A stretch of DNA of 64,000 bases, taken from a virus. The DNA lies in the IMG/VR virus record IMGVR_UViG_3300022752_003639, positions 64,001-128,000 of that record. One strand, given 5' to 3'. Of this stretch, positions 3,981 through 48,400 are shown in pieces (the first letter of the stretch is position 1; every line of letters starts with the position of its first letter). A program made the translations under genes and the position numbers. Under the pieces are notes generated by a model that saw nothing but the letters and a program-made list of their open reading frames with translations, ran no database searches and was not told where the DNA came from.

Positions 3981-4472
3981 ATGAGAATAATAGATATTTT
4001 AACAGAAGATAACAATTTAAGAACCGGCGATGTTCTAGCTATAGAATGTGATAATGGACTACTTATTGAATCTACCATAGTAGGATTTATGAACGACGGC
4101 GTAGTAATACAAGGAGACTCTGTTATTCTTTCTTATCTAAAATATGAACCTTTTAATGAATCTATCACAAAGTTTACCAGTATGGAACTGGCAGTTATGG
4201 AAGGCGGTGGTGATATTAGTGACTTATCTGAAGCAGAATATCAAGGTCGTAATGTCCCTTTAGGTAAGCCTATGGCGGGAGATGTCAAAAAGTCTAAAGT
4301 CTATGTTAAGGGACCAAGTGGTAGGGTAGTCAAGGTAAATTTCGGCGACAAGAAAATGAAAATTAAAAAGTCTAATCCAAAACGCCGAAAGAGTTTTAGA
4401 GCTCGTCATAATTGCAAAAATCCCGGACCACGTTGGAAAGCACGTTATTGGTCATGTAGGGCATGGGAATAA
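3981..4472 (+). CDS. Putative internal head protein with basic C-terminal domain
   Basis: MRIIDILTE N-terminus; acidic N-half, then LSE, then K/R-rich VNFGD..RRKSFRARHNC..KARYWSC module. Confidence 0.55.
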   Translation: MRIIDILTEDNNLRTGDVLAIECDNGLLIESTIVGFMNDGVVIQGDSVILSYLKYEPFNESITKFTSMELAVMEGGGDISDLSEAEYQGRNVPLGKPMAGDVKKSKVYVKGPSGRVVKVNFGDKKMKIKKSNPKRRKSFRARHNCKNPGPRWKARYWSCRAWE

Positions 4473-4475
4473 ATC

Positions 4476-4832
4476 ATGTTACTTAACGAATTTTTTAATA
4501 ATCCTATAAATTTACATAGAAAAGAAAACCACGAATCGTCTACATATAAAGATGATTTGTTTCATTATATTTTAGATCATGACAAGCTGCATAAAGATTA
4601 TTTTTTTCCAATTGCAAAAAAATTAAAACATTTAAAAGAAAACACAGATAAAAAAATAATAGAAATTTTTATGCCTATGGTTATTAAGGGCTGTAAAGAA
4701 TATTATCATAATCAAAAAATGGAGGGTAGATTAAGTAAATTATTTCCTCAAGAAATGAGAGAGGAGCTTTGTCAACGTCTATACGATCACTACTATGAAG
4801 ACGTTCGTGCGGGCAAATATAGGCTGGGGTGA
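4476..4832 (+). CDS. Hypothetical protein
   Basis: 118-aa ORF tightly packed in the operon, MLLNEFF start. Confidence 0.6.
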   Translation: MLLNEFFNNPINLHRKENHESSTYKDDLFHYILDHDKLHKDYFFPIAKKLKHLKENTDKKIIEIFMPMVIKGCKEYYHNQKMEGRLSKLFPQEMREELCQRLYDHYYEDVRAGKYRLG

Positions 4833-5722
4833 TTATGTTTCTAGCAGAAGGTGGCAATGAATTTAAACTTGCAGATGGTAGCAATGCCACTAAACAGTCA
4901 GCGTCTACGGAAGAAGTAGATGCAGTCTTAGGTGCATTGAGCAAAGAAATAGGCATAGACTTACTGGCCAACGATCTAGAAAACAAACCTAAATATAAAA
5001 CAGGCAGTGCTATATATCCTGGTGCAGAAACAGGTGACGCAGACACACTGTTAGATCCTGTAGAATTTATACCTGTAGATAAAGGTGCCAAACCTAAAGA
5101 TGTGCAGAATCAATTTAGAGAATTTTTAGCCAAAAAACTACAGACAGCAGGTTATGAATTTCTTGAAAAGAAAGCCACAGTAGACCAACCAGGAAGATTC
5201 TATAAGATATCCGGAGATGGACTCACAGCCTGTGTGCAAATACCAGGCACAGAAGAATGGCTACAAGTAGACCTGGACATAGCAGAACCTGGAGAAGGTA
5301 AGTTTTCAGTATGGAGCAAACGTGGTGAACCTAATGAACCTGGCACACCAAAAGACAGTCGTGCCAAAGGTGCCTTTCGTCATATTCTGCTAGCGGCCAT
5401 AGGTAGTAAGTTAATCAGTCCAGAACATCCACAGGGCCTTAGTTGGAGTTTTAAGAATGGCCTATTTGACCGTGCTACCAAACAGGTAGTTAGCAAAGAT
5501 CCTAATGAAGTAGCCAATATCCTATTCGGTGGCAAGGCCAGCGATCTAGACAACATTAATGCCATACTGGCTAAATTTAAACAGACACATCCTAATCACT
5601 ATAATGATGTTGTACAAAATGTCAATGCTGGACTGGAAAAATATAACACACAGTATAGACTAAAAGAAAGTCATGCTGTGGGCACACCTCAATGGTTTAG
5701 GATCGTCCTGGATCTAATATGA
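4829..5722 (+). CDS. Pol-beta superfamily nucleotidyltransferase-like protein
   Basis: GS..(x)..GDAD motif (KTGSAIYPGAETGDADTLLD) plus a distal VQVDLD acidic strand; EGGN start. Confidence 0.6.
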   Translation: MIMFLAEGGNEFKLADGSNATKQSASTEEVDAVLGALSKEIGIDLLANDLENKPKYKTGSAIYPGAETGDADTLLDPVEFIPVDKGAKPKDVQNQFREFLAKKLQTAGYEFLEKKATVDQPGRFYKISGDGLTACVQIPGTEEWLQVDLDIAEPGEGKFSVWSKRGEPNEPGTPKDSRAKGAFRHILLAAIGSKLISPEHPQGLSWSFKNGLFDRATKQVVSKDPNEVANILFGGKASDLDNINAILAKFKQTHPNHYNDVVQNVNAGLEKYNTQYRLKESHAVGTPQWFRIVLDLI

Positions 5723-6849
5723 GAATTAGGGAACTACTAGAAGCGGCAGCAGTTGGTCGCAAATATCAACACATAGAAGACCTTGTGTTTACCAATGGTA
5801 GTCAAGGTGGACTTCATGCCGCAGAACGCCTGCGCAGCATGGCATCAACTGGTGGCACTGTTGAAATTAAGTGGGACGGTAGCCCTGTTGTCTACTGGGG
5901 GCGTGATGAACAAGGTCGCTTTTCAATGATTCCTAAAAATGCCTGGGAATATCTCAAGCGTGGCAAATCAGAAGTTGCCCCAGGTGTTCCTACTGCGATG
6001 TATAGTCCAGATGACATTAAAAAGTTTGTGTTGGGCACAGGCAAAGTAGAACCCGGTCAAGAAAAACAGCGACAGGCCTTTGCCAACAGCATGGCAGAAT
6101 TATGGCCCTACTTTGAAAAAGCCAGTCCACCTCGAGGTTATGTAGAAGGTGGTATACTGTTCAGTCCAGAAAAACCTGCTCAACTAAATTCTAAAACTAT
6201 GGAGTATGACTTTACTCCAAACATTACCAGCTTCCATATTCATAAAGACAGTGAGCTAGGACAGCGTATTTCCAAGGCCAAACTTATGGTAGCTGTTACA
6301 GGTTATTATGATAGTCTAGGCAGTTCAGATGAAGGACGTTTTCCAGATGCAGAAAAACTATCTACACCAGACGTAATTGTTCAAGGCACTACCTATGTGG
6401 CACAGGCACCTGGCATAGATGATACATTAGTAGATCAAGCAGAAGGTTTTATTGAAAAGAACGGTCAACGCATAGATCAATTCCTAGCACCCAAACCAGG
6501 ATTAAGTAAGGTAGGTGATATACTTTACAAATTCTATAACCAAAATCTGCGCATAGAAGGAACAAAACAAAAGTTTAAGGCTTGGGCAGCACAAAATCTC
6601 AGCCAATCGCAAGCTGCAAAGGTTCTAAACGATCCTGGTCTAGAAACTGTGCTAGATGCTGTAGAGTTATTGAGCAAGGCTAAAACAGATCTAATCACTA
6701 AACTAAGTTCAGGAACACATGCAGGTATTAGACAGACTAAACCAGAAGGTTATGTTCAAGCACATCCAGGTGGCAAATTCAAGAGTGATCTACCTGGGCA
6801 ATTTGTCAAGGCCATAGATCAAGCAACATGGGCACCAAGGAAAGACTAA
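5719..6849 (+). CDS. ATP-dependent RNA-ligase-like protein (DUF6267-like)
   Basis: Ligase motif I KWDGSP, motif III-like VEGGILF, motif IV KPEGYV, motif V FVKAID. Confidence 0.65.
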   Translation: MRIRELLEAAAVGRKYQHIEDLVFTNGSQGGLHAAERLRSMASTGGTVEIKWDGSPVVYWGRDEQGRFSMIPKNAWEYLKRGKSEVAPGVPTAMYSPDDIKKFVLGTGKVEPGQEKQRQAFANSMAELWPYFEKASPPRGYVEGGILFSPEKPAQLNSKTMEYDFTPNITSFHIHKDSELGQRISKAKLMVAVTGYYDSLGSSDEGRFPDAEKLSTPDVIVQGTTYVAQAPGIDDTLVDQAEGFIEKNGQRIDQFLAPKPGLSKVGDILYKFYNQNLRIEGTKQKFKAWAAQNLSQSQAAKVLNDPGLETVLDAVELLSKAKTDLITKLSSGTHAGIRQTKPEGYVQAHPGGKFKSDLPGQFVKAIDQATWAPRKD

Positions 6850-6850
6850 T

Positions 6851-9010
6851 ATGTTATTAAGACAATTATTTGAAAATACGTCAACACCTAAAACCGCAGT
6901 GTTAGGATGGGGTAGAGGTATGGGACACAAAGGTCATATGCTATTGGCCAAAGCTGTACTGCATCATGCTCAAGAAAATCAAGCTAAACCTTTCTTTGTG
7001 GTCAGTAGAACTAGTCTAGTAGATCCTAGCACAGGTCAACCCTGGGCAGATAAACCCACATTTACCAAGACCAAAGATGATCCTCTTACACCAGACGAAA
7101 AACTCAATACTTATCGCAAGGTATTCCCACAAAATGCAGAAGTATTCAGTGTGGCCACGGCAGATGCTACTAAGTTAGAACAGGTCATGGCAAAAATTGC
7201 CCGTGAAGGATTTAATAAAGTCATATTGGTTGTAGGTGAAGACCAAAAAGACTCAATGGGATATCTAACTCGTCCTGCTAAATCAACAGGCGTTCCACCA
7301 TATAAAGAAGCAGGAATAGATCAATTAGAAATTATCAGTAGGCAAGATACTACAGAACCCAGCAGTATGAGAGGCAGTCCAGAATATCAAGAAGGACCTA
7401 GAGCCACACCTATGCGGCAGGTCCTAATGGATCCCTCAAAGAGTGAACAAGAACAATTTGCCATATGGCGCAGAGACATGCCAGATAATTTAAGTGATGA
7501 AGAAGTCATGGATCTCATGCTCAAGGCTAAACAGCGTATGAGCATGGTTCCTGCTGGTAAGCGTGGCGTAAAAGAACGTATGCTACCACCTAGCACATTT
7601 GCAGGCTATCCAAAAAACAAACTTGGCGCTGCTGCTCATTTAAAAGGTAAAATGAAAAGACCTGCCAGAGCAGGTGATCTTGTAGGTGATGCTCAAGAAA
7701 GTATAGAAGAAGATTCATACAAAATTGCCCCCGGAGATAATTTATCCACTTTGGCTAAGAAATTTGGCACAACGGTAGATGCTCTAATGAAGGCCAATCC
7801 ACAAATAAAAGATGCTAATCGTATACAAGCAGGCGCTACACTAAATGTTCCTAGTCAAGGCAGTGATCCTAAAGGTTCAGTAAGATCCGGTCCTAACACA
7901 AATATCAGGCCAGATACAAGAGCAAGAGCACAGGCACAGGTAGCACCTTTAGACAAACCTAAAGCATCAATACCGCAAAAGTCTAATGCCTTACAAGAAC
8001 CTGGATTCATGGAAAAACTAAAACAGGTTGCAGACAATCTACAGATTAACGCAAATGATTTATTAGGTGTAATGAAACATGAATCACGTATGAATCCAGC
8101 AGCAGTGAATCAGCAATCAGGTGCTACAGGACTAATACAGTTTATGCCACGCACAGCGCAGAGTCTAGGAACTTCAACAGACGAACTCCGCACCATGAGT
8201 GCATTAGACCAATTAGATTATGTAGAGCGTTATTTTAAACCTATAGCAGGCAAGGCCAAAGACATAGGTGACCTATATATGTTTACATTCATGCCGGCAG
8301 CAGTGGGCAAACCAGATGACTTTGTAATTGGTGTAAAGAATGGTGACAAACCTTTGTTTGGTCTGAACCAAGGAAAATTATATGCTCAAAATTCAGTATT
8401 CGACAAAGATAAAAAAGGATATTATACTGTAGGTGATATCAAATCTCGTGTATCTGGATTTGCTGAAGGTGTAGAAGAAGGTTGGAAATCTAAACTAGCA
8501 GGACTTGGATTAGCGGCTGCTGCGGCTATGGCGCCAGGTAAATCAGATGCTAGAGTAAACATAGATGACCCAGATAGTTATCGTGCTCCGGCTCCTATAG
8601 CACAGCAACAAAAAATAGACTACACAGCACCCGGTCCTGTTACAAAAGACAGCATGGGACAGAAATTAGAGTATGGTATTCCTGTTACTCCAGACGGCAA
8701 ATTTAAGGCACCTAGTCAAGATTTACCAGACGACGAATATGCTCAACAGTTAAAAGCCTATAAGACATGGAAAGCAGACTTTATGTCTAGGTGGCCTGAC
8801 GCAGTATGGAATAGTGATGGTAGTGCGAAATCTAATATGAAACCAGGTCTAGCACCTATGGCGCCAGGATATAAACCGGGCAGTGGACAAGGACTAGCAC
8901 CTGTATTTCCGGGTGCGGTTAAAGAAGATAAATTTGTACCACTCAGTGAGGATGTAGCCAGTATCTACAAGAGTTTATTAGACACAATTTTAATTAACGA
9001 ACAAAAATAA
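6851..9010 (+). CDS. Fusion of HxGH (cytidyltransferase-like) nucleotidyltransferase, LysM and lytic transglycosylase (SLT)
   Basis: GRGMGHKGH and VVGEDQ; LysM YKIAPGDNLSTLAKKFGTTVDALMKANP; SLT HESRMNPAA..GATGLIQFMP. Confidence 0.75.
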   Translation: MLLRQLFENTSTPKTAVLGWGRGMGHKGHMLLAKAVLHHAQENQAKPFFVVSRTSLVDPSTGQPWADKPTFTKTKDDPLTPDEKLNTYRKVFPQNAEVFSVATADATKLEQVMAKIAREGFNKVILVVGEDQKDSMGYLTRPAKSTGVPPYKEAGIDQLEIISRQDTTEPSSMRGSPEYQEGPRATPMRQVLMDPSKSEQEQFAIWRRDMPDNLSDEEVMDLMLKAKQRMSMVPAGKRGVKERMLPPSTFAGYPKNKLGAAAHLKGKMKRPARAGDLVGDAQESIEEDSYKIAPGDNLSTLAKKFGTTVDALMKANPQIKDANRIQAGATLNVPSQGSDPKGSVRSGPNTNIRPDTRARAQAQVAPLDKPKASIPQKSNALQEPGFMEKLKQVADNLQINANDLLGVMKHESRMNPAAVNQQSGATGLIQFMPRTAQSLGTSTDELRTMSALDQLDYVERYFKPIAGKAKDIGDLYMFTFMPAAVGKPDDFVIGVKNGDKPLFGLNQGKLYAQNSVFDKDKKGYYTVGDIKSRVSGFAEGVEEGWKSKLAGLGLAAAAAMAPGKSDARVNIDDPDSYRAPAPIAQQQKIDYTAPGPVTKDSMGQKLEYGIPVTPDGKFKAPSQDLPDDEYAQQLKAYKTWKADFMSRWPDAVWNSDGSAKSNMKPGLAPMAPGYKPGSGQGLAPVFPGAVKEDKFVPLSEDVASIYKSLLDTILINEQK

Positions 9011-9013
9011 ATA
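9007..9013 (+). promoter_or_regulatory. Late-like promoter ATAAATA
   Basis: ATAAATA 7 nt before the dps ATG. Confidence 0.55.
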
Positions 9014-9020
9014 TATTATT

Positions 9021-9458
9021 ATGAAACAACTAATAGAAATAGCTAAAATTGCTTTTGCCAGTGAATTCAGTTTTTACTTAAAAGCACACCAATTTCATTG
9101 GAACGTAGAGGGTGAAGATTTCTTACAATATCACGACTTATTCGGTAAAATTTATGAAGAAGTATATGGAAGTATAGATGATTTTGCAGAAAAAATTCGC
9201 AGCTTAGGGTCTTACATGCCAGGCAGTTATACACGTTACAGTATGTTGAGTAAAATAGAAGATGAAGATCAAATACTTCCTAAAGATCAAATGGTATCTG
9301 AACTTATGAAAGATAACGAACGAATGTTAATTATTTTCAAACAGGTGTTCGATGCCAGTGAAGCTGAACATGAACATGGATTTAGTGATTTTATAGCAGG
9401 ACGTATGGACGCTCATCGTAAACATGGATGGATGTTAAGAGCATCAATGAAAAGATGA
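9021..9458 (+). CDS. dps: Dps / ferritin-like DNA-protection protein
   Basis: HQFHWNVEG..F..YHDLF..IYEE....IDDFAEKIRSLG, terminal HRKHGWML. Confidence 0.9.
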   Translation: MKQLIEIAKIAFASEFSFYLKAHQFHWNVEGEDFLQYHDLFGKIYEEVYGSIDDFAEKIRSLGSYMPGSYTRYSMLSKIEDEDQILPKDQMVSELMKDNERMLIIFKQVFDASEAEHEHGFSDFIAGRMDAHRKHGWMLRASMKR

Positions 9459-9796
9459 GAGCTAAAGAATTTATAAACGAAGATAAAGAAAAGAAAATTC
9501 GTATGGCATCGAGATTATCTCTACCATATGCGCTAAGATTAGATGGATCTGATCAATATTATGATTTTTACAGATTAGGATTGGCCATGGCAGGAGCTCC
9601 TGAAGACGGAACTCCGAAAGAAGGTCCAGCCAAAGATTCCCCTACTATTTGGCCATATTCCGATGCAGATGCACAAAAGGTAGAAAAAGCACTTAAAAAT
9701 CAAGGTGCGACCGGTAAGGTAATTATAAAAAAAGGTAAGAGTGAAGAACTGCCTTCAACAAACACAGTTAGCCCCGTAGCACAATGGATGAGATAA
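9455..9796 (+). CDS. Hypothetical internal protein, paralog A (start refined to ATG 9455)
   Basis: ATGA overlap with the dps stop; MRAKEFINE...TNTVSPVAQW. Confidence 0.6.
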   Translation: MRAKEFINEDKEKKIRMASRLSLPYALRLDGSDQYYDFYRLGLAMAGAPEDGTPKEGPAKDSPTIWPYSDADAQKVEKALKNQGATGKVIIKKGKSEELPSTNTVSPVAQWMR

Positions 9797-10176
9797 TGAG
9801 AGCAAAGGAATTTTTGCAGGAAAGATCTGCTAAAACACATGGTAAATTTACAAGTTTATCAGCAGACGCAGATGCGGCACTTCCTGGTGTATGGGTACAA
9901 AGACAATTAAGAAATACTGATCCATATATGCAATATAGATATGCACTTGCTGTGGCAGCAGCAAGGGCAGATAAAAGTGGTGAAATAGAATTTAAACAAG
10001 AAAGTCCATGGGCTGAAAATTTAACCATAGTAGGATATACTCCAGAAGATGCAGATGTTGTTTCCATGGCAGATAAATTAATGGGAGTCAAAGGTACACG
10101 TATTGCTGATGATAAAAGTAAAGAACCTAAAGATACAAACACCGTAAGCCCTATACCAAATTGGAATAAATCATGA
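9796..10176 (+). CDS. Hypothetical internal protein, paralog B (start refined to ATG 9796)
   Basis: TAATG overlap; MRAKEFLQE...TNTVSPIPNW. Confidence 0.6.
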   Translation: MRAKEFLQERSAKTHGKFTSLSADADAALPGVWVQRQLRNTDPYMQYRYALAVAAARADKSGEIEFKQESPWAENLTIVGYTPEDADVVSMADKLMGVKGTRIADDKSKEPKDTNTVSPIPNWNKS

Positions 10177-12974
10177 GCGAATATAAGAAAATAACTACAC
10201 CCACTTTAACTCGTTTCGTTCTAGAAACTATGACCGCAGGTGCCACAGGTTCTGCAAATATTGCCACATCGATGGGCACTATAGGCAAGACTATCAAGCG
10301 TCAACAAGAAGCCAAAGATGACAAGGTGCCTCAAAAGCCACGTCAAGGTCCCCTACGCCCACAGACAGGTGCAGGCGCACACAAAGATAAAAAGCGAGAT
10401 CAAAAACAGGGCAAAGAAAAACATCGCAAGCCTTTCTATGAGCAACATACAGATCATGAAGTGGAAATGGCGCAGAGTGATACATACCAGTTGGCCAAAC
10501 AGGCTGCAGAACTACATAAAATTCTAATGCGTGCCAGTGAAGAGCAGGGTCTAGAAGGTTGGCAACAGGCTAAGATCACAAAGGCAGCAGACTATATCAA
10601 TGCTGTCTACAAAAATCTCAATCACGATGTAGACATGGACGGTCATATTGGTGAGCAAGCTCTATCAGAATTAGAAAAACCCAGCGGAACACTTTATATA
10701 ATATTATTAAGAGACAGAACAGAATCTGTTCGTGTAGTAGGAGACTTTGGGACATTTCCAGCAGAAGTGCAGGCCCGTGCCAGCAAGGTAGGTATTAAGG
10801 ATAAAGAAGGTCGCAAAGAGCGTCCTCTAAAAGTTAATTTTCTAATGACTAGTGCCAGCCAGGCTCTAGCAGAATTAGACAAAGCACTAGCAGATGTAGA
10901 TTTTATCGGCGGAGAAAAGGCCGAGTTCGTATTTAAAAATTCTGCTTTTGAAACAGACATAGAAGATGAGGTGAGGGAACTAAATGATCTAATTCGAAGT
11001 GGTGCGGACGAAAGATTTAAGAACTATGAAGAACCAGAAGTAGGTTCCGAACCAGAGACCAAACCTAAAGGTGTAGATCATTTTGTTGTTGGTCCAGATG
11101 GCAAGCGTCGTCGTGTGCCTATACCAGGAAAGCCAAGTAGTCAAATGGGAGGTCATGCTGTAGAACAACCTAAAACATTTACCTACCAACTTAAGAAAAC
11201 AGAACTAGGTCCTAAACTACGCTCAATGGGCTTTAAGGTAGATGGTAGTCAAATTGTATTGAGCAAACAACAGCGTGATCAATTACTGGCAAAAATGGGT
11301 GATCAACAGTTCGGACAGATATTCGGCCAGGGTGGTAAGTTCACAGAAGGTGGCTATGACGATCAGTTTAGCCTCGGAGGCAGACTAGAAAGAGACGACG
11401 ATTTTCGCAATAGAGAACGCAATGCTGGAGTTGAACATGAAAGAAATAACTACCAGGTAAGCATAAATGGTAGGCCTTGGAAAGTGTTTGCCGATCAAAG
11501 GCAAGCTATGAATATTGCTAGAAGTCTTAAAATGAAAGGCAAAGAAGTAGAAGTTTATCCTACAGGAGCTAGGCCCTCAGAAAGCGTGGGAGAGGCAGTG
11601 AAGAAACCTAATGCTACTACTCGTCATTTAAGAGATTATCCAGTTAGTGATAAGGACGTGGCCAAGCCTGTTAAGAAACCTGAAAAGAAAAAACCAGAGC
11701 AAGGTGTGGCGGAAATGGACAAGAGCCAACCCAGCCACGGTCGTGATGGTAAGATTAGCCACAGCACCTATGGTTCAAGAGATAAAGAAGGTTCTGACTA
11801 TTTCAAAGGTAAGGAAGTTTCTGTTAAGCCTATTACCGTAAAGAAGATGGAAAAAGACGCACTTGATATTCTCAAGAAGCAAGGTGTGGCGGAAGGCTCA
11901 TTGGAAACTGACAATATGGTATCACATATTAGTCAGGTAATACAAAGCATTTATCCACGCGGTGGTGATAAAAATACATATATGAAACTGGTAGCCCGAG
12001 AAATGCCACGTATAGTGAAAGCCAATCCTAAACTATTCAGAAGAGCATTCGGTATGGCATATGATAGATTCTTTCATATAGACCAAGACGACGATCAAGA
12101 TGACGATTTTGATTATACTGATCATAGTATGCGTAAGGGTGAGCGTGGTATGGCGGAAGTCAGAGGCAATATTGATGCTGATCAAGCAGGATTTTATGTT
12201 GTCGACGAGGACGGAAACGCAGTTTCTGGTCCATTTGCTTCTAAACAAGAAGCATACGAACGAGCAGCCGAAATGGGTCGTATGTATGATGTAAAATATA
12301 AAGGTGATATAATACCTTTAGATTCGTTAATTAGTAAAATAATAAAGACACTACCACCAGATGTAACAAGTGATGATCTTCAGGACCCAATGGATCTTGA
12401 GCAACAATTAGAAATACTAAGAAGTCCATTAGTAAAAGTATTTTCTAAATTATCACCTTACGAACAAGCCGAAGTCACAGACGAAGTAGCGAATTATTTT
12501 TATGACAGAAGATTTGGTGATTTAGATGAAGGAAAGATCAAAGGTGTGGACGGTAAAGCCTGCTGGAAAGGCAAGCGTTATGCTGGCAAGGTCAAGAAAG
12601 CAGATGGCACCTACAAAGACAAATGTGTAGAGGATGTAGTAGAAGCACTAGAAGAAGTTAAAAAAGGTCTTTACTACTATGTGAACAAGCGTAAGAAGGC
12701 AGGCACCAGTAGACCAGCCAGCCATCCAGATGCTCCAAGTCCACAAGACTGGAAGAACGCTGCCAAGACTGCTAAGAAAGAAGATACCTATTCAGAAAGT
12801 CTGTTGAATCAACTGGATGCACTGTTAAATGAAAAGGCACCTCCAGGTGACAAGTATGAGCGTATGGTCAAGCATATTAAAAAAGGCTATAGCAAAGACG
12901 GCAAAATTACAGACAAAGAACGCAGCATCGCATATGCTACAGCATGGAAGGCTAAAAACAAGGCAAAAAAGTAA
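10173..12974 (+). CDS. Large modular putative internal head (poly)protein
   Basis: 933 aa of unrelated short charged modules separated by x-x-E junctions (QGVAE twice, RGMAE, KFTE, LDE, LNE). Confidence 0.65.
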   Translation: MSEYKKITTPTLTRFVLETMTAGATGSANIATSMGTIGKTIKRQQEAKDDKVPQKPRQGPLRPQTGAGAHKDKKRDQKQGKEKHRKPFYEQHTDHEVEMAQSDTYQLAKQAAELHKILMRASEEQGLEGWQQAKITKAADYINAVYKNLNHDVDMDGHIGEQALSELEKPSGTLYIILLRDRTESVRVVGDFGTFPAEVQARASKVGIKDKEGRKERPLKVNFLMTSASQALAELDKALADVDFIGGEKAEFVFKNSAFETDIEDEVRELNDLIRSGADERFKNYEEPEVGSEPETKPKGVDHFVVGPDGKRRRVPIPGKPSSQMGGHAVEQPKTFTYQLKKTELGPKLRSMGFKVDGSQIVLSKQQRDQLLAKMGDQQFGQIFGQGGKFTEGGYDDQFSLGGRLERDDDFRNRERNAGVEHERNNYQVSINGRPWKVFADQRQAMNIARSLKMKGKEVEVYPTGARPSESVGEAVKKPNATTRHLRDYPVSDKDVAKPVKKPEKKKPEQGVAEMDKSQPSHGRDGKISHSTYGSRDKEGSDYFKGKEVSVKPITVKKMEKDALDILKKQGVAEGSLETDNMVSHISQVIQSIYPRGGDKNTYMKLVAREMPRIVKANPKLFRRAFGMAYDRFFHIDQDDDQDDDFDYTDHSMRKGERGMAEVRGNIDADQAGFYVVDEDGNAVSGPFASKQEAYERAAEMGRMYDVKYKGDIIPLDSLISKIIKTLPPDVTSDDLQDPMDLEQQLEILRSPLVKVFSKLSPYEQAEVTDEVANYFYDRRFGDLDEGKIKGVDGKACWKGKRYAGKVKKADGTYKDKCVEDVVEALEEVKKGLYYYVNKRKKAGTSRPASHPDAPSPQDWKNAAKTAKKEDTYSESLLNQLDALLNEKAPPGDKYERMVKHIKKGYSKDGKITDKERSIAYATAWKAKNKAKK
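11698..11714 (+). repeat. 17-nt direct repeat copy 1, AGCAAGGTGTGGCGGAA
   Basis: Identical to 11878-11894; encodes QGVAE. Confidence 0.85.
11878..11894 (+). repeat. 17-nt direct repeat copy 2
   Basis: Identical to copy 1, 180 nt downstream. Confidence 0.85.
12142..12158 (+). repeat. Degenerate repeat copy 3, AGCGTGGTATGGCGGAA
   Basis: 14/17 match; encodes RGMAE. Confidence 0.65.
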
Positions 12975-13014
12975 GTGAGCAGGAACCAGAAGATCCGACC
13001 ACGGATCCTGCTCA
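12965..13014 (+). promoter_or_regulatory. Candidate -1 programmed ribosomal frameshift signal
   Basis: In-frame A AAA AAG (12965-12971), TAA, then hairpin TGAGCAG/CTGCTCA plus GATCCG-ACCA-CGGATC (12976-13014). Confidence 0.65.
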
Positions 13015-13204
13015 GAAGATAAAACCAGTCGGGCCACAACCTAAACTAACACCTAACATGCCTCTAGATACATGGGTAGATAGATTTAAGAATGAAAAGA
13101 ATGTGTCCAAATATAAACAGTTTAAAAACAAGAGTCCGGAAAAACGTGAACAAATGGCCTGGGCTGCTTACTATGACGCACATGAACCAAAAAGGAATGC
13201 ATAA
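12971..13204 (+). CDS. 77-aa -1-frame extension of ORF 10173 (VSEQEPED...KSPEKREQMAWAAYYDAHEPKRNA)
   Basis: Open -1 frame with no start codon near its 5' end; fills the gap and ends in TAATG overlapping the next start; absent from the ORF track. Confidence 0.65.
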   Translation, partial: VSEQEPEDPTTDPAQKIKPVGPQPKLTPNMPLDTWVDRFKNEKNVSKYKQFKNKSPEKREQMAWAAYYDAHEPKRNA

Positions 13205-13623
13205 TGAGATCATATATTGCCATAGTTGAAGCGTTGAATAAGGGCTGCCCTGTGGCCACATATAATCTAGATGTTAATCTAAAAAATCGTCAAAAGGCCA
13301 TAGATGAATATCATTATGGTCCTGCTAATCCAGATGATGCCGGCGACTACTGGAAGAAGGCTGCTGCAAGATGGAATATCACAGAAAAAACTGCTAAGAC
13401 TATGAAGTGTGGAAATTGTGCTGCCTTTGATGTGTCTGATAAAATGCGTAAGTGTATGGAAGATGGTATCAAGGGGGACGACAAGGCTGTAGACAGTATG
13501 GCCACAATCGAAAAAGCAGATCTAGGTTATTGTAACTTCTTGCACTTCAAATGTGCCGGAACTAGATCATGCACAGCATGGGTCACAGGCGGGGTAATAG
13601 ATAACAAAGATAGAACTGAGTGA
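13204..13623 (+). CDS. Cys-rich protein with HiPIP-like cysteine pattern
   Basis: CGNCAAF...GYCNFLHFKC...RSCTAW. Confidence 0.5.
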   Translation: MRSYIAIVEALNKGCPVATYNLDVNLKNRQKAIDEYHYGPANPDDAGDYWKKAAARWNITEKTAKTMKCGNCAAFDVSDKMRKCMEDGIKGDDKAVDSMATIEKADLGYCNFLHFKCAGTRSCTAWVTGGVIDNKDRTE

Positions 13624-16133: not shown

Positions 16134-16356
16134 TTTAACATGGCTGTTCTGGTTTGAGTGGTCTTGCACTATAATTTTATTGGCAGGAGTTATTTTAACT
16201 AGTTTTAATATATATCCTACAAATATATGGTTTTTATTAATAGGAAACCTTGGCTGGATCGCCCTAGGATATATATGGCGTAAATGGAGTTTAATTATTT
16301 TACAAGTTATAATAACACTAATCTATATTGCCGGATTAGTAAAGACTTTACTATAA
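16114..16356 (+). CDS. Small multi-pass membrane protein
   Basis: About three hydrophobic segments in 80 aa. Confidence 0.6.
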   Translation: MLKFLRSLTWLFWFEWSCTIILLAGVILTSFNIYPTNIWFLLIGNLGWIALGYIWRKWSLIILQVIITLIYIAGLVKTLL

Positions 16357-16359: not shown

Positions 16360-16431
16360 AATTTGAGTAAGGTTCGCGAGCCATAAATCGCATAAGTGGT
16401 TGTCCAGCCTTAAGTGGAACAAGGAGAAATT

Positions 16432-19104
16432 ATGAGTTATGTAGATGCCATCTGGGATCGTGATAATGATATTATCAAAGTTGTTGAACGTGATCCTAAA
16501 AAGGGTCGCTTATTTCAAGAATACCCTGCAAGATATATATTTTACTACCCGGATTCAAAAGGTAAGTATAAATCAATTTACGGTGATAATCTTTCTAGAG
16601 TATTAACCAAATCATTTAAAGACTTTCAAAAAGAACAAAGAATACATAATAGTCATAGACTATTTGAAAGTGACATAAACCCCATATTTAGAACACTAGA
16701 AGAAAATTATTTAGGTAAAGAAGAACCTAGACTAAATGTAGCATTTTTTGACATCGAAGTCGATTTTGATCCAGAAAGAGGATACGCTAGTCCAGACGAT
16801 CCCTTTATGCCTATCACAGCTATTACAGTAAACCTACAGTGGTTAAATGTTTTAATAACATTGGCTATCCCTCCAAAAAGTCTTACATTAGAAGAGGCAA
16901 AAGAACAGGTAAAAGATTTTCCAAATACACACTTATTTGAATCTGAAGGAGAAATGTTAGAAACATTCTTAGAATTATTAGATGATGTAGATGTATTGAG
17001 TGGATGGAATTCAGAAGGCTATGATATTCCCTATACAGTAAACAGAGTAACTAAAGTATTAAGTAAAGAAGATACTAGAAGATTTTGTTTATGGGATCAA
17101 TTTCCTAAAAAAAGAGAATACGAAAAATACGGCAAGACCGCCGTGACATATGATCTTATAGGTCGAGTACATTTGGATTCTTTAGAGCTTTATAGAAAAT
17201 ATACCTATGAAGAACGTCACACTTTTAGATTAGATGCTATAGGTGAAATTGAAATTGGAGAAAATAAAACAGTTTACGAAGGAACACTTGACCAATTATA
17301 TAATAACGACTTTCGTAAATTTATAGAATACAACAGACAAGACGTTGCTTTATTAGACAAATTAGACCGAAAACTTAAATTTATCGACCTTGCCAATAAA
17401 ATTGCTCATGAAAACACAGTATTATTACAGACTACTCTAGGAGCTGTAGCAGTAACCGAGCAAGCAATTATTAATGAAGCACATCATCGAGGTATGATGG
17501 TTCCTAGTAGAGCTAAACGCGATGAGCTAGGTGATACAGGAGCAGCGGGCGCATATGTAGCCTACCCTAAAAAAGGACTTCATGAATGGATCGGAAGCAT
17601 TGACATCAATAGTCTATATCCAAGTGTAATTCGTGCATTAAACATGGGACCGGAGACCATTGTAGGTCAACTACGCCCAGAAAAAACTGAAAAATATATA
17701 AACGAACAAATATCTATACATAAAAAAACATTCGCAGGGGCCTGGGAAGGAATGTTTGGAACGCTAGAATACGAAGCAGTAATTAAAAAAGATAGAGCAT
17801 TTGAAATTGTTATAGATTGGGAAAACAACGAAACCAGTGTGTTATCTGCGGCAGAGGTACATAATTTAATTTTTGAAAGTAATAACCATTGGATGCTCAG
17901 TGCAAATGGAACTATTTTTACCTATGAAAAAGAAGGCATAATTCCTGGCCTACTGAAACGATGGTATGCTGAACGTAAAGAATTACAAGGAAAATTAAAA
18001 TTAGCTAAAGATGCGGAAAATATTATAGAAGAAGAGTATTGGGACAAGAGACAATTAGTTAAAAAGATTAATCTTAATAGCTTGTACGGCGCTATTTTAA
18101 ATCCAGGATGTAGATTTTTTGACAAGCGTATAGGTCAATCAACAACATTAACAGGTAGATCTATAGCAAAACACATGGCAGGAACAGTAAATGAAATTGT
18201 AACAGGTGAGTTTGATCATGTAGGGAAAGCTATAATCTATGGTGATACAGACAGTTGTTACTTCAGTGCATACTCTACATTAAAAAGAGATATCGAAAAA
18301 GGACAAGTACCTTGGAATAAAGATATTATAATTCAACTTTATAATCAAATCGCAGATAAAGTAAATCAAACATTCCCAGAATTTATGCTTGCAGCATTTC
18401 ATTGTCCCAAATCTAGAGGAGATGTTATTAAAGGGGGCAGAGAAATTGTTGCAAGCAAAGGTTTGTTTATCACTAAAAAACGCTATGCAGTTCTATATTA
18501 TGATAAGGACGGAAAACGCACAGACGTAGACGGAAAAACTGGCAAAATTAAAGCTATGGGCTTAGACTTAAAAAGAAGTGACACTCCTGAATTTATGCAA
18601 AAATTCCTAGAAGAAATTCTTGGCAAAGTTCTACACGGCGAACAAGAAAAAGAAATTTTAGATAGAATTAGTGAATTTCGAACAGAATTCAAAGCTCGCC
18701 CAGGTTGGGAAAAAGGTTCGCCTAAACGTGCTAATAATATTACAGAATACGAAGCTAAAGAAAAGAAAGCAGGCAAGGCTAATATGCCGGGACATGTACG
18801 TGCAAGCATAAATTGGAATACTTTACGAAGAATGAATGGAGACAAATATTCCATGCAAATTGTTGATGGTATGAAAGTTATAGTTTGTAAAGTAAAAGAC
18901 AATCCATTAGGATTTACCAGCGTGGCCTATCCTACAGACGAATTACGGTTACCAAAATGGTTTCAAGAATTACCATTCGACCATTCAGAAATGGAAACAA
19001 CAATCATTAACAATAAATTAGACAATCTCATCGGTGTTCTAGAATGGGATTTAGAAAGCACTACACAGGATAATACTTTTGGCAAGTTATTTTCTTTTGA
19101 ATGA
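16432..19104 (+). CDS. gp43: Family B DNA polymerase (T4 gp43-like; start refined to ATG 16432)
   Basis: Exo FFDIE; DINSLYPS; KINLNSLYG; YGDTDS; KKRYA; RBS AAGGAG at 16421. Confidence 0.95.
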   Translation: MSYVDAIWDRDNDIIKVVERDPKKGRLFQEYPARYIFYYPDSKGKYKSIYGDNLSRVLTKSFKDFQKEQRIHNSHRLFESDINPIFRTLEENYLGKEEPRLNVAFFDIEVDFDPERGYASPDDPFMPITAITVNLQWLNVLITLAIPPKSLTLEEAKEQVKDFPNTHLFESEGEMLETFLELLDDVDVLSGWNSEGYDIPYTVNRVTKVLSKEDTRRFCLWDQFPKKREYEKYGKTAVTYDLIGRVHLDSLELYRKYTYEERHTFRLDAIGEIEIGENKTVYEGTLDQLYNNDFRKFIEYNRQDVALLDKLDRKLKFIDLANKIAHENTVLLQTTLGAVAVTEQAIINEAHHRGMMVPSRAKRDELGDTGAAGAYVAYPKKGLHEWIGSIDINSLYPSVIRALNMGPETIVGQLRPEKTEKYINEQISIHKKTFAGAWEGMFGTLEYEAVIKKDRAFEIVIDWENNETSVLSAAEVHNLIFESNNHWMLSANGTIFTYEKEGIIPGLLKRWYAERKELQGKLKLAKDAENIIEEEYWDKRQLVKKINLNSLYGAILNPGCRFFDKRIGQSTTLTGRSIAKHMAGTVNEIVTGEFDHVGKAIIYGDTDSCYFSAYSTLKRDIEKGQVPWNKDIIIQLYNQIADKVNQTFPEFMLAAFHCPKSRGDVIKGGREIVASKGLFITKKRYAVLYYDKDGKRTDVDGKTGKIKAMGLDLKRSDTPEFMQKFLEEILGKVLHGEQEKEILDRISEFRTEFKARPGWEKGSPKRANNITEYEAKEKKAGKANMPGHVRASINWNTLRRMNGDKYSMQIVDGMKVIVCKVKDNPLGFTSVAYPTDELRLPKWFQELPFDHSEMETTIINNKLDNLIGVLEWDLESTTQDNTFGKLFSFE

Positions 19105-36934: not shown

Positions 36935-38220
36935 ACCATTATTTCTACTTTACCTCTATCACCTATAAAATCCTGTAGGGCCTTACCAATTACTGCACAA
37001 GGATGATCGCCGTCTTTAGCTGCTTCTGCATAACCTCTTACTGAACTGGTTACTAAAAGTTGCCCTTTGGTTATCGGGCCGATTACTTTGCATGGAACTT
37101 TACCTTTTAAAGCTACAAAAGGATGAGTTTGATTTTCACCAACAGAATCGTTCATTCTATAAGCTGGATTTTTAGATATTACTCCTGCTACAGATGTATT
37201 TGCTCTGATATCTGTTAAGGTAATTTCTTTTTCACCGCCAATTACAACAACCGTACCATACTGATAAACATCATCTGCTTCATATCTTTCTGCTAGATCA
37301 GCATATAAGGCACTACTTGCTATGGTACTTAAAACTCTGGTTACCGGATTATATTGTAACCCGGTATTTGCATATACAACTGCTGAACTTGTACTTGTAC
37401 TCAAAAACGGTACAAACCAATTTTTATTATTCGCTCCTGCTGCCGAAGATATTTCTGTATAACCCATGCTTGAAGCATATGTAGCTGTTGCGGCTGTTAG
37501 AGCATATAGGGATTCCGCTGCTGTTCCCCACAAGTACGTGCTTGTAGATAATCCTGTAATTTCTTTTCTTGTAGAACCTGTAGCAGGATCAGCTCCTAGT
37601 AATGTAATACCCCTTACTAATCTCTTTGTTATAGGATACAAAGGATATTCAGATGGGTTTTGAACTGATTCAGATTGTGGTAAATTATATGTATCTGCAG
37701 AGACTATGGCTATACTTTCTTCCGCACTTCCAATCACAGCCTTAAGATTATAGATAGGTAAGTCAAGAGAACTTACATTATATTCAAAATCTCCATGCCA
37801 TTGCGCTCTTGTATCGGAACCAATAGGAGGACCAACTGTTATATAATCATTTCCATCATATATGTTTAGTTGTTTTTTTGTTGTATTAAACCACAAGTCG
37901 CCTTGAACAGGTGATTTTGTAGACGTAGGAATATTTGTTTCAGAGCTAGATTCTAAATTAGCGACACCTTTCCAATGCAGACTATCGTATGCATAAAACT
38001 TTTTCTCAGTTACATTGAAATAAAGTTGTCCTTCGATAGGTTTAGCAGGAGCTGTGGTATTTGCAAAATTCTCTAATAATTTTAAAAAATTTTCGTTTTG
38101 ATATTCACCATAGCCTGCAAAATTTTTGCCTACAAAAAGTAAATCTGTAGTTTGATCTAAACTTGCATCCTGTACAGTAACTAAAATTGTTCCATTTGTT
38201 TTATTAAGAATATATGGCAT
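36931..38220 (-). CDS. Tail fibre/baseplate protein with C-terminal autocleaving-chaperone-like (peptidase G2-like) domain
   Basis: Shared N-domain VGKNFAGYGE..NENFLKLLENFA; C-terminal ADLAERY..GTVV..GVIS..VALKGKVPCKV. Confidence 0.65.
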   Translation of the reverse strand: MPYILNKTNGTILVTVQDASLDQTTDLLFVGKNFAGYGEYQNENFLKLLENFANTTAPAKPIEGQLYFNVTEKKFYAYDSLHWKGVANLESSSETNIPTSTKSPVQGDLWFNTTKKQLNIYDGNDYITVGPPIGSDTRAQWHGDFEYNVSSLDLPIYNLKAVIGSAEESIAIVSADTYNLPQSESVQNPSEYPLYPITKRLVRGITLLGADPATGSTRKEITGLSTSTYLWGTAAESLYALTAATATYASSMGYTEISSAAGANNKNWFVPFLSTSTSSAVVYANTGLQYNPVTRVLSTIASSALYADLAERYEADDVYQYGTVVVIGGEKEITLTDIRANTSVAGVISKNPAYRMNDSVGENQTHPFVALKGKVPCKVIGPITKGQLLVTSSVRGYAEAAKDGDHPCAVIGKALQDFIGDRGKVEIMV

Positions 38221-45429: not shown

Positions 45430-48400
45430 TTATAATCCTTGTAATAAATCACCATCATTCTCTGCTAGTGGGTCATTGTTTTCATCATATAATTCTAAGT
45501 TTCCTCCATAATAGTATACGCTTGGTAATTCAGCCGGTCCACGACGTAAGAACTTAGCTTGAGTGCTTGTACTAGTCAATATCGAACTGGTTGAAATATC
45601 CCAAATCTTACTGGTTTTCTTAATTACAGTAATTCTAACACCTGGAATAACTTCTTCGCTAATATTTAACCTTAATGTTTGACTCGTGCCCACTTGTATT
45701 GAAAACTCTGGAGGTAAAATTTCATAACTAGCTGTATATACACCATTTACAAATACAGAAGATGTATTATCATAAGCACGACTTATATCATGCACGGTAA
45801 CAGAATCCTTACGTAAACGACGACCTCCATAATATACTTCTACCTGATCTTCGAAAGCAGGTAACACACCATTAGTTGTAGTGGTTAATAAAACTATACC
45901 ATTTCCTACACTAGTTGTTGTATTAACACTGAAAGAACTAGTATTAGTTAGAGTACTAATAATGTAGGTTGTTGTATTGGAACTAGGAATATGTTGTATA
46001 TAACTTCTTTCTTCCGTGGACATATTCTGTCTCATACTCTGATCATAGACTAATGTACCAGCATCTGAATACCAAGGAGTACCAGTACCATAAGTTCCCC
46101 TGCGTAATTGTGTAAGTTCGTTACCGTTTTTCACAAAAAATTCAATTCTTTCACTGTCAATAAACACAACACCTGGTATATTTTTACTAGGATTAGGAGA
46201 AAATAATACACTTCCATCTTCAACATGAATACTTGTATCATAATAATTTAAAGGCTGCGCCAGACGAGTCCTAAAAAATCTTGTTATACGTTGTAGACTT
46301 TGTCTGTCAAAAATATCTTTCCATATTCTGTAGGCTAAAATATTCGTTGAATAATTCACCGGATTAATTGTATTAATTACAATCTTAGATCCTAATACCA
46401 TATCAACATCATTACCAATTACAACCGTTTGCATATCTGACTTCAAATAAAAATCAAATCCTGCAATAAGTGACTGATCATTTGCAGTGACCCAAACGTA
46501 GTTTTCATTGAAAACTGGCAGGCTTAGGTAATATTCGTTGTTGTGACTTAGGTCAAAAGTTTCAGTTCTTATTCCCATAGAATCATGATTTTGGAAATGG
46601 GTTACCTTTAATGATCCGCTGGTAAGTGCAGTTTTTAGTCTAATCTGATTTTCTAAAACAACGTAACCATAATCAACTAGATCCATAATTGTTATGGTAT
46701 CATTATTCCTAAGAATGCCTGTATTAATTGTAACAGTTTCAGCACCTTGATTAATAGTAAAATCAAATCCTGGTCTAATTTCATATCCATTTACATAGAC
46801 TTTTACATTTTGGTTATTATAAATTCTTCCGCTGCGTTTATTGTTAATATCATATGTATTTTGTAAGTTGCTTACCTTGTAATAACTTATATCAGGAGGA
46901 AGCAATCTTACTCTGCTACCATAATTATTACCAGATAAATGTTCTACTATCACCTGACCAGATATTGGTTCTAGCATAAAGGGCGGACTTGCAAATGTCA
47001 GTAAAGAAGTTGTTGTACTAATGACATAGTACTGCTCGACTATACGATTTAGTGATTCAAAATTATTTCTAAAAAACCATGCTAGAACTTCATGCCTACC
47101 AGAAGGTATATTTTTAATTTTTACAGACGCACGTTTGTTGTCTGCACTGACCGGTTCTAATACATATCCTAACGATGTGCCTGTTACATATTGGTTAACT
47201 GATACTCCATCGAGCTCAACATAAGCTCTGCTGACATCGCTGAATGCTAGATCACTAATTAAAATTGTATTAGATGTTGTCACAAAATCAACTGCTGCTG
47301 TTTGACTGTCTAAGCCTGTAGATGATCCTGCTGTTACATAGGAATATCCAATTTTACCTTGTGCGCTTTGAGCTGCTACAGTTAGTTTATTTCCTTGCAA
47401 GAAGTAACTACTGCTGTTTAGTCCGGGTAAAGGATATGACGACGACCTACTTAAAGGTCTTCCGTCAAAAGTTACTAATAATCCTGCAGGTATTTCACCT
47501 GTTATAAAGTTTATTGTGGCCGTTGTCTCTACTCCCGGTTGAGTAAAAATAGCACCATTAAACATTATAGGATTTATTTTTTCAGGTCTAGTGTATACAC
47601 TTAAAGATAAACTATCTTTTGTATCTCCAGGAACAAATTCTTCTGGAGCATAACTTCTAAATGGATTAACTAATCCATCAGGATTAAATGAGGCTGAAAT
47701 TTGTTGACTTTCTGAACTAGCTTTAATGTAATTTTCAACGTCCAATAAAGTCTGATAACCGTCGACTATAGTTTGTACCCAATAATCTAATCCTCCCTGG
47801 TCTGCATGTCTGTATAGGTATTTTAGATAATACCCATCAATAGAATCTGCATAAACTGTAGCAGTTGTGCCTGGAACTGTTGTATTAAGTTTATTGCCAT
47901 AATATTGACCAACTGGTTTAATCCATCCTCCGCCTTGTACAGAAACATCAGTGGCCGTGATTCCAAATGCACTGGTATTCGTACCATTAAAATAACTGCC
48001 ACCTGATAAATTCACTGTTAATAAATCAGGATCATAATTGTACTTCCAAAAATCTATTTCAGTGTATCCGTATATAGTAGCTGTTGCAGTGGTCATCACT
48101 CCTGTGCTTACCCCAGTAACATTAATAACAGCTCTGGTTACTGTGCCTGAACTAGTTGTTATATACCAGGTAGGTGATCCTGAACTAAATTGCACTGTAG
48201 CAGTTGCAACTTGAGAAAATATTGCATAAGTTTGTATAGAAAAAGTAGAAGTTCCTGTGCTCAGCTTGACTACTTTGTCTAAGACTGATGCTGTAGAACT
48301 TACTGTACTAAGAATACTTAATATTCTAACCTGAGTAGCAGTAGTAACCTGCGAAGTAGTTGCACTAAGAACTTGGGTAGCAGTTACCTCGAAAGTTGAA

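Follow-up and report, generated by a model that had tools for sequence, protein, structure and literature searches.

African swine fever virus (ASFV) encodes a 174-amino-acid (aa) family-X DNA polymerase (Pol X) and a DNA ligase, a pair that works in base-excision repair. In Phaeocystis globosa virus 16T, the protein PgVPolX is a Pol X fused to an NAD+-dependent DNA ligase, and its activities repair base-excision gaps in concert (PMC5537341). The subject here is a trio of adjacent open reading frames, ORF1, ORF2, and ORF3, on a stretch of 64,000 nucleotides of viral DNA (positions 64,001 to 128,000 of the IMG/VR record IMGVR_UViG_3300022752_003639; the whole stretch is called the window below) from an uncultured giant phage related to T4. 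The trio is predicted to encode a miniature Pol X, a ligase-type enzyme of Pfam family DUF6267, and a nucleotidyltransferase (NTase) with a HIGH motif. To our knowledge, viral repair pairs of Pol X and ligase are known from eukaryotic giant viruses and not from bacteriophages. The trio would be, in terms of the literature, a new variant: a viral repair system made of 3 families without an assigned function. A first-pass annotation of this DNA, made from the letters alone, knew of no functional description of such a triad, and a literature search agrees, as no paper was found that mentions DUF6267.

Like the ASFV pair, the trio has a minimal palm-plus-thumb Pol X by predicted fold together with a virus-encoded ligase, which would follow the same fill-and-seal logic. 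It differs in having no detectable sequence similarity to the ASFV proteins, in having as ligase an Rnl-like DUF6267 protein with a helical insert where ASFV has a DNA ligase with an oligonucleotide/oligosaccharide-binding (OB) fold, in having a third, HIGH-motif enzyme, and in belonging to a bacteriophage, with no apurinic/apyrimidinic (AP) endonuclease seen beside it. PgVPolX is similar in that the polymerase precedes the ligase in one polypeptide, as it does in phage relatives of about 620 aa, but its Pol beta-like core is complete and has dRP lyase activity, and its ligase is of the LigA type; the phage enzymes are smaller and show no sequence relationship to it. Bacterial LigD, of nonhomologous end joining, likewise combines 3 catalytic modules, which process ends, add nucleotides, and seal, and which are fused or split depending on the genome. 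Its polymerase, however, is an archaeo-eukaryotic primase-type enzyme, the third module is a phosphoesterase, the ligase bears an OB domain, and homology to the phage modules is confined to the NTase core of the ligase. For the trio, the pairing of Pol X with a ligase suggests first of all that gaps are filled and nicks sealed, with DNA base-excision repair in ASFV and Phaeocystis globosa virus (PMC5537341) as the best precedents.

Two further comparisons are with phages. Among the diverse internal proteins of T4, the one shared element is the capsid-targeting sequence, by which they are loaded into the scaffolding core (PMC3012670). IPI-III and Alt resemble the proteins described here in the short leader ending in hydrophobic-x-Glu, in the clustering of variable genes, and in the T4-type prohead protease of the lineage. 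The T4 cargo differs, consisting of restriction inhibitors and an ADP-ribosyltransferase, whereas the cargo here, known from genes alone, would be 3 nucleic-acid or nucleotide enzymes plus a cell-wall hydrolase. The other comparison is a cyanomyovirus gene pair (S-SZBM1_140/141; S-WAM1 P090810_166/165) that is homologous to ORF3 and ORF2 in the same order (hidden Markov model [HMM] E = 6 × 10−10 and 1 × 10−42) and has the same type of leader on the cytidylyltransferase, which was detected in virions. It differs in that no Pol X gene was found in the flanks examined, the DUF6267 protein is leaderless, the site is the replication module, and there is no LysM-SLT fusion.

We put at about even the chance that the 3 genes are one conserved unit for filling and sealing gaps in nucleic acid, at least partly packaged in the head and delivered with the DNA. 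A fill-and-seal unit is favored because a Pol X combined with a ligase is the hallmark of short-patch filling and sealing of gaps. The polymerase would add nucleotides at a gap or recessed 3' end, and the ligase would self-adenylylate on Lys51 and then seal the remaining nick. The HIGH enzyme would act in the same pathway, most plausibly making or regenerating a dinucleotide cofactor such as NAD+, or activating a 5'-phosphate. Because their T4-type leader ends in [LIVFM]xE, the ligase and the HIGH enzyme of this phage would be loaded into the prohead core; a T4-type prohead protease would trim them, and they would be delivered with the DNA. The cell-wall module of LysM and lytic transglycosylase would be one of many alternative C-terminal cargoes on the HIGH enzyme. 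We infer the enzymatic activities of ORF1 to ORF3, their substrate, their cleavage, and their packaging in this phage.

Gene layout

The window is part of a contig of 138 kb, with an estimated completeness of about 35% by CheckV. The 3 genes are as follows.

4835-5722, plus strand: ORF1, 295 aa from the ATG at 4835, with a longer alternative start at the GTG at 4829
5719-6849, plus strand: ORF2, 376 aa, its ATG overlapping the ORF1 stop as ATGA
6851-9010, plus strand: ORF3, 719 aa, starting 1 base past the ORF2 stop

With 3 ORFs on the plus strand at almost zero spacing, the genes are consecutive and tightly packed as first described, and they are real and translationally coupled. The ORF1 entry in the sequence collection is likewise 295 aa. 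The interval originally assigned to them, 4829-7560, does have the 3 genes, but 7560 is only the end of the first domain of ORF3, a gene that runs to 9010.

ORF1 is predicted to be a miniature family-X polymerase

ORF1 has no sequence match in Pfam, PHROG, NCBIfam, or the Protein Data Bank (PDB), and none by tblastn against 50,697 phage records; ORF1 and ORF2 searched against PDB by sequence, singly and as profiles, gave nothing meaningful. An AlphaFold2 (AF2) model of ORF1 built on a 36-sequence alignment has a predicted local distance difference test (pLDDT) score of 92.6. Compared exhaustively by VIA-align with 48,161 chains, its 10 best matches are all Pol X, 9 of them at Z = 9.2-10.0 and the tenth at Z = 7.0. 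TdT is at Z = 10.0 (181 aa), Pol beta at Z = 9.9, and ASFV Pol X (5hr9) at Z = 9.6 (164/176 aa), and the top 10 also hold Pol lambda, Pol mu, and Thermus PolX (21% identity). NTases outside Pol X, namely CD-NTases, TUTases, and CCA-adding enzyme, reach Z ≤ 6.9 over about 100 residues. Foldseek finds Pol mu and Pol lambda with the same model at E = 5.6 × 10−5. The structural alignments cover model residues of about 10-245, equivalent to Pol beta 139-335 and to nearly all of ASFV Pol X.

Residues G57-S58, D68-x-D70, and D146/D148 are invariant across 36 homologs, and because the GS, the DxD, and the third Asp are all kept, the catalytic center looks intact. The spacing from S to D is 9 residues, the same as in Pol beta, which has the motif GSFRRGAESSGDMDVLL. 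By predicted fold, ORF1 is a minimal family-X (Pol beta-like) polymerase with palm and thumb only, like ASFV Pol X. The first-pass annotation had proposed a Pol-beta-type NTase with a fold for CCA or nucleoside monophosphate (NMP) addition; the kind was right, but the match is more specific, to the palm and thumb of Pol X and not to a generic CCA- or NMP-adding NTase. The motifs it had read in the 3 enzymes (GS..GDAD with a distal D, KWDG/EGYV/K, and HxGH) are all present and conserved, their key residues being invariant in homologs (36, 61, and 21 sequences, respectively).

ORF2 has a predicted ligase-type fold

ORF2 is a member of DUF6267 (PF19782) with E = 1.7 × 10−17. There are 424 relatives among 1.84 billion cluster representatives, and in the phage records searched by tblastn it matches only cyanomyoviruses. 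Across 61 diverse sequences, 23-79% identical to the window protein, H18, K51, D53, G54, K322, E343, G344, and K364 are invariant and W52 is nearly so. The KxDG corresponds to ligase motif I; E343-G344 is assigned as motif IV and K364 as motif V by their order and the structural match rather than by residue-level superposition.

The AF2 model has pLDDT 94.9, and nearly all of the structures that it matches best are polynucleotide ligases. The top 50 re-aligned PDB chains are all ligases, with Z = 4.8-6.6 over 160-200 residues; Z-scores of 5-6.6 fall within the range for which the comparison tool warns of a common arrangement. The Naegleria RNA ligase NgrRnl is highest at Z = 6.3-6.6 over about 180 residues, followed by TbREL1 at 5.8-5.9, fungal Trl1 at 5.4-5.7, and T4 Rnl2, Chlorella virus DNA ligase, and T4 DNA ligase at about 5.2-5.4, with ASFV ligase at 4.1. 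The best Foldseek E-value is 6.8 × 10−3. The model has a helical insert at about residues 235-330, which is probably the reason for the modest Z-scores. On this modeling, RNA and DNA ligases are effectively tied, being about 1 Z unit apart, and ORF2 is placed in the covalent nucleotidyltransferase superfamily but not in any known ligase family. The folds first proposed for the 3 enzymes agree with the AF2 models of ORF1 and ORF2 and with the domain comparisons of ORF3 given below, in the case of ORF2 at Z of only 5-6.6.

The question of substrate bears on whether the trio might be an RNA repair kit directed against host ribotoxins. The Pol X-like enzyme would then add ribonucleotides, untemplated or guided by a paired strand, to cleaved tRNA or rRNA, and the Rnl-like ligase would reseal it, much as T4 Pnkp and Rnl1 mend the damage left by an anticodon nuclease. 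RNA ligases are the structures closest to ORF2 (NgrRnl Z = 6.6, TbREL1 5.9, Trl1 5.7), but the difference from DNA ligases amounts to a tie by the measure of the tool. In the trypanosome editosome, a Pol beta-type TUTase works together with REL ligases, but ORF1 is far nearer to family-X DNA polymerases (Z = 10) than to CCA-adding enzymes or TUTases (Z = 5.5-6.5). Some homologs add a Zeta/AAA_33 kinase-type or HD domain after the NTase, recalling end-healing enzymes, but the conserved core has no kinase or phosphatase for end healing. Delivery with the DNA would suit a pre-emptive counter-defense. Altogether we regard RNA repair as unlikely, and prefer the filling and sealing of gaps for which DNA base-excision repair is the model.

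ORF3 joins a HIGH-motif domain to a cell-wall module

ORF3 has 4 parts.

6884-7555, plus strand: HxGH cytidylyltransferase-like NTase domain, ORF3 residues 12-235, with the motifs GHKGH, SRQ, and GPRAT.MR
7718-7852, plus strand: LysM peptidoglycan-binding domain, ORF3 residues 290-334 (PF01476, E = 2.2 × 10−12, 47.2 bits versus a cut-off of 20.9)
7988-8455, plus strand: SLT lytic transglycosylase domain, ORF3 residues of about 380-535 by PHROG and 394-444 by Pfam
8456-9010, plus strand: C-terminal module of about 180 residues with a hydrophobic stretch LAGLGLAAAAAMA and no family match

The GHKGH (G25-H26-K-G28-H29), SRQ, and GPRAT.MR motifs are invariant in 21 aligned homologs, and GHKGH or GHTGH occurs in every homolog listed. 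The NTase domain has no direct match in Pfam or NCBIfam and no tblastn match in the phage records. ESM Atlas places it among viral clusters of PF01467, the cytidylyltransferase-like family, with a feature score of 0.93 and a structure template modeling (TM) score of about 0.7. By hhalign it scores 95.6% to the S-WAM1 protein annotated as a 'cytitidyltransferase', which itself passes PF01467 at 30.4 bits versus a cut-off of 21, and the HMM of the domain reaches cyanophage cytidylyltransferases at E = 6 × 10−10. The distant fused relatives P0389 and P0399 pass the PF01467 cut-off directly. By these comparisons, the N-terminal domain of ORF3 is linked to the HIGH nucleotidyltransferases of PF01467, for the window protein transitively. 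The second motif of the domain reads RATPMR, and SASKMR in its cyanophage counterpart, and is similar to ISxTxxR.

The SLT domain matches PF01464 with E = 2.3 × 10−9 (37.3 bits versus 21.3), phrog_13530 with 2.1 × 10−36, and phrog_196, 'baseplate hub', with 2.8 × 10−32, and the translation has both an HES motif (catalytic Glu-Ser) and GLIQF. The fusion of ORF3 to a lytic transglycosylase is in keeping with a protein acting at entry. What follows the NTase domain is not constant among homologs (P0196-P0315), where LysM-SLT, a ParB-like N-terminal domain, Zeta toxin/AAA_33 kinase, HD_4/RelA-SpoT-type, DUF6321, DUF6886, and PG_binding_1 are found, and the C-terminal module of ORF3 recurs as a cassette in homolog P0264, which is without LysM-SLT. 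Such variable cargoes suggest a modular delivery scaffold. As a separate observation, the variable C-terminal domains resemble a polymorphic-effector layout.

The HIGH superfamily includes NMNAT, and the cyanophage enzyme has been called an NMNAT homolog by its authors (PMC10665884), which raises the idea that the trio builds NAD+, a dinucleotide polyphosphate, or a mimic of an immune signal, against defenses that deplete NAD or signal by nucleotides. No specific NMNAT match is found for ORF3, either in NCBIfam or by hhalign against NadD, NadR, and CoaD. CD-NTases are among the weaker matches of ORF1, at Z = 6-7, and ligases can make dinucleotide polyphosphates, but a thumb-bearing Pol X and a ligase architecture belong to enzymes of polynucleotides. 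The known phage pathways for reconstituting NAD+ use NAMPT, Nudix, and the like. We judge this chemistry quite improbable as the purpose of the trio, and keep the HIGH enzyme as a candidate partner in a repair pathway.

The trio is conserved in relatives

A check of gene neighborhoods had been proposed along with the initial description, and it finds the 3 domains co-occurring in relatives, as separate genes or fusions. Using HMMs of the 3 domains, we scanned 80 IMG/VR loci around DUF6267. Wherever flanks exist, the domains nearly always come in the order PolX, ligase, NTase, and the fusion states comprise 3 separate genes, PolX plus ligase at about 620 aa, ligase plus NTase at 999 aa, and a triple fusion of 984 aa (L060). 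Searching with the NTase domain, many matching proteins also hold DUF6267, and some begin with MxLxEGGN of the ORF1 type. Fusions of DUF6267 with PF01467, in both orders, occur in more distant members, and a 591-aa protein of S-PM2, named cytidyltransferase-like, matches the ORF2 model structurally. Judged by these sequences, the trio genes are neighbors or fused in hundreds of phages, and the bond between ligase and NTase is the deepest within the trio. The conserved order and the fusions are strong comparative evidence that the enzymes share a pathway.

An independent relative, G001, has a genome of 345 kb that is 94% complete, and the window block is syntenic there. Because G001 carries a canonical ATP-dependent ligase besides DUF6267, DUF6267 is not its only ligase. 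This weakens an idea that was considered, that DUF6267 is simply a missing replicative ligase, although for cyanophages it may still hold.

Leaders and possible packaging signals

The trio lies within an island of genes with a shared N-terminal leader.

3981-13623, plus strand: island of tightly packed genes, most of which begin with a common leader, including a Dps/ferritin-like gene and a 933-aa modular ORF (10173-12974)
6851-6874, plus strand: ORF3 leader MLLRQLFE, resembling the T4 capsid-targeting sequence

The ORF2 leader is the 8 residues MRIRELLE. The ORF3 leader is conserved in orthologs as MLLKNLFE, MFLKNLFE, MRLRQLFE, and others, and other genes of the island start with MRIIDILTE, MLLNEFF, MRAKEFINE, and MRAKEFLQE. 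The leader pattern occurs in 6 of the 10 genes of 3981-13623 versus 0/158 other ORFs of the contig (Fisher P = 7 × 10−9), with the pattern, 7 residues long, having been written post hoc from the examples it counts. G001 has the pattern in 12/380 ORFs versus 0.3% at internal Met residues, and 4 of the 12 are in the syntenic block. All 3 enzymes had been credited with a capsid-targeting-like N-terminus, which stands for ORF2 and ORF3; in ORF1, MFLAE is instead the conserved start of the enzyme domain, xLxEGGN being present in all homologs. Many ORF1 orthologs do carry an added leader, MLLREVL or MYLREVL, and the fused protein of G001 starts MLLRELFRSVKKPLLE-GGN.

The T4 prohead protease gp21 cleaves after Glu in (L/I)xE. 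In natural fusions, just upstream of each enzyme domain, a [LIVFM]xE site is present at 65/69 PolX|ligase junctions and 49/49 ligase|NTase junctions versus 10-14% of random windows, the sequences being related so that the counts are not independent. Among triad-bearing relatives, G001 and G002 have genes for a prohead protease of the T4 type (Peptidase_S77, E = 5.6 × 10−27) and for a gp23-type capsid protein. The head cluster of G001 has the T4 order of portal, small protein, core protein, protease, scaffold, and capsid, in which the small protein at the position of T4 gp67 starts MILRELF and the scaffold starts MLDALKSLFE.

Cyanophage homologs and virion data

DUF6267 and cytidylyltransferase genes are adjacent in the cultured cyanomyoviruses S-WAM1, S-RSM4, and S-SZBM1. 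In S-SZBM1, the cytidylyltransferase _140 starts MRFRQFIIE, a leader, and the adjacent DUF6267 protein _141 starts MAKNTHLEHLED, without one. No Pol X is found in the 3-5 kb flanks examined around cyanophage pairs, and hhalign of the Pol X profile with the gene upstream of DUF6267 in S-WAM1 is negative. PF01068, the ATP-dependent DNA ligase, has no match in the complete genomes of S-WAM1 (KU686210.1) and S-RSM4 (FM207411.1), NAD+-dependent ligase profiles not having been searched, so that DUF6267 may be the only ligase-type enzyme of these 2 phages.

Liquid chromatography-mass spectrometry of S-SZBM1 virions detected the cytidylyltransferase S-SZBM1_140 and the product of the next gene, _139, and in the portion of the virion table covered the DUF6267 protein _141 was not found (PMC9146016). 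Virions of S-CREM2 also contained the cytidylyltransferase, and its authors remark that cytidyltransferases are frequent in cyanophage virion proteomes (PMC10665884). The first-pass annotation had gone as far as a virion-packaged and injected module that could repair cleaved tRNA or RNA, rebuild NAD-type cofactors, or make a nucleotide signal. Packaging has genuine though indirect support in the leader island, the S77 protease of relatives, the [LIVFM]xE junctions, and the leader-bearing cyanophage homolog of the HxGH enzyme detected in virions (PMC9146016, PMC10665884). The case is weakest for ORF1, which does not share the leader, and the virion data are from homologs and not from this phage.

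Side observations on the genes that follow are that a small Cys module (KACWKGYK...DNCV or NPCWTGYHP...PNCV) recurs downstream of the trio or pair in S-WAM1, S-RSM4, and G001 (L001 7248-8813; L082 7001-7600; L047 12218-13564), and that S-SZBM1 _139, which was detected in virions, is the gene at the equivalent place downstream of the cytidylyltransferase.

The cyanophage loci also suggest that the proteins might be unpackaged cytoplasmic enzymes of replication and metabolism, DUF6267 sealing nicks of the lagging strand or of recombination, the HIGH enzyme being an NMNAT-type auxiliary gene for NAD+, and the N-terminus being no capsid signal. The cyanophage pair does sit in the replication module, its DUF6267 is leaderless, 2 of the phages are without the PF01068 match, and the window block is 7 kb upstream of the gp43 polymerase gene. 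G001, however, possesses a canonical ligase in addition. The leader occurs in a cluster, is common to head-core genes, and coincides with detection of the cyanophage homolog in virions, and a cell-wall hydrolase fused to ORF3 makes little sense for a replication enzyme. We consider a purely cytoplasmic role doubtful, and stay with a repair unit that is at least partly packaged.

Points against a packaged repair unit

Several observations weigh against this preferred reading. As a polymerase, ORF1 has neither the fingers nor the 8-kDa dRP-lyase domain, with their helix-hairpin-helix motifs, its alignments beginning at the palm, although ASFV Pol X also has neither. None of the 36 ORF1 family members matches Pfam PF14792 or PF14791 even at E up to 10, Pol X sequence profiles have no six-frame match, and the ORF1 profile likewise has none among PDB sequences. 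The ORF2 model has no obvious OB barrel, its ligase scores lie in the range of the tool's warning, and the literature found is silent on DUF6267. The HIGH enzyme falls into no substrate class by hhalign, the ORF3 NTase profile giving probabilities below 1% with E. coli NadD, NadR, and CoaD.

The packaging part has its own difficulties. ORF1 in this genome fails the leader pattern, and that pattern, as said, is post hoc. The window's own contig, at its 35% or so of completeness, has no protease, portal, or capsid gene. In S-WAM1, S-RSM4, and S-SZBM1, the pair is between gp41/MazG and gp61, within the replication module, and cyanophage DUF6267 starts directly at the enzyme domain, without a leader. 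The peptides behind the virion detections number 2-3, and contamination is a possibility that the S-CREM2 authors themselves raise (PMC10665884).

A more ambitious version of the repair unit would be an injected, self-sufficient machine, with the mini Pol X filling gaps, DUF6267 as a new class of ligase dependent on an NAD+-type dinucleotide, and the NMNAT-like partner remaking the cofactor from the ligase by-product and ATP, so that DNA would be mended before phage gene expression even in a host drained of NAD+. We hold this to be a long shot.

Significance

If the fill-and-seal reading is true, DUF6267 is a new ligase family, the widespread cyanophage cytidylyltransferase gains an explanation, and a capacity for repair can be predicted for hundreds of aquatic phages. 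Cyanophage genome papers treat the cytidylyltransferase as an auxiliary metabolic gene (PMC9146016). If the unit is also packaged in the head, it would be an example of enzymes for nucleic-acid repair or processing delivered together with the phage genome, which is relevant to the survival of phages under UV damage, restriction, and ribotoxin defenses.

Neighboring genes and other observations

T4-type genes on the contig include those for the gp43 DNA polymerase (16414-19104), a gp6-like baseplate wedge protein, and a CobS-like ATPase. The gp43 is closest to polymerases of jumbo myoviruses of 350-490 kb, namely Phosso, Atu_ph07, and 121Q/PBECO4-like E. coli phages. One further gene follows the trio directly.

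9021-9458, plus strand: Dps/ferritin-like gene, directly after ORF3 (PF00210, E = 9.5 × 10−17; phrog_3636, 'DNA binding protein')

Its product may be a DNA-coating head protein. A counterpart is at the equivalent place in G001 (L047 9377-9814), and there is no clear leader. A few kb upstream of the block, G001 has a J-domain (DnaJ-like) gene and a ClpA/ClpB-like AAA+ chaperone gene (L047 1999-5207). On the window's own contig (C1), a J-domain-like gene, judged by eye, precedes the window at 60462-64057, and a putative ClpP-like N-terminus is at 37328-37912.

A scan of the window finds no T4 late-promoter octamer TATAAATA upstream of the trio block, and scans for sigma-70 promoters and terminators gave nothing informative. 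The octamer TATAAATA occurs once in the whole window, at 16352 upstream of the DNA polymerase gene, versus 13.3 expected from shuffles, and this marked depletion suggests a different late-promoter motif in the lineage. Finally, on the minus strand at 45430-59388, between tail-fiber-like genes and the gp6-like baseplate wedge gene, there is a single ORF of 4652 aa (4469 aa from the first ATG).

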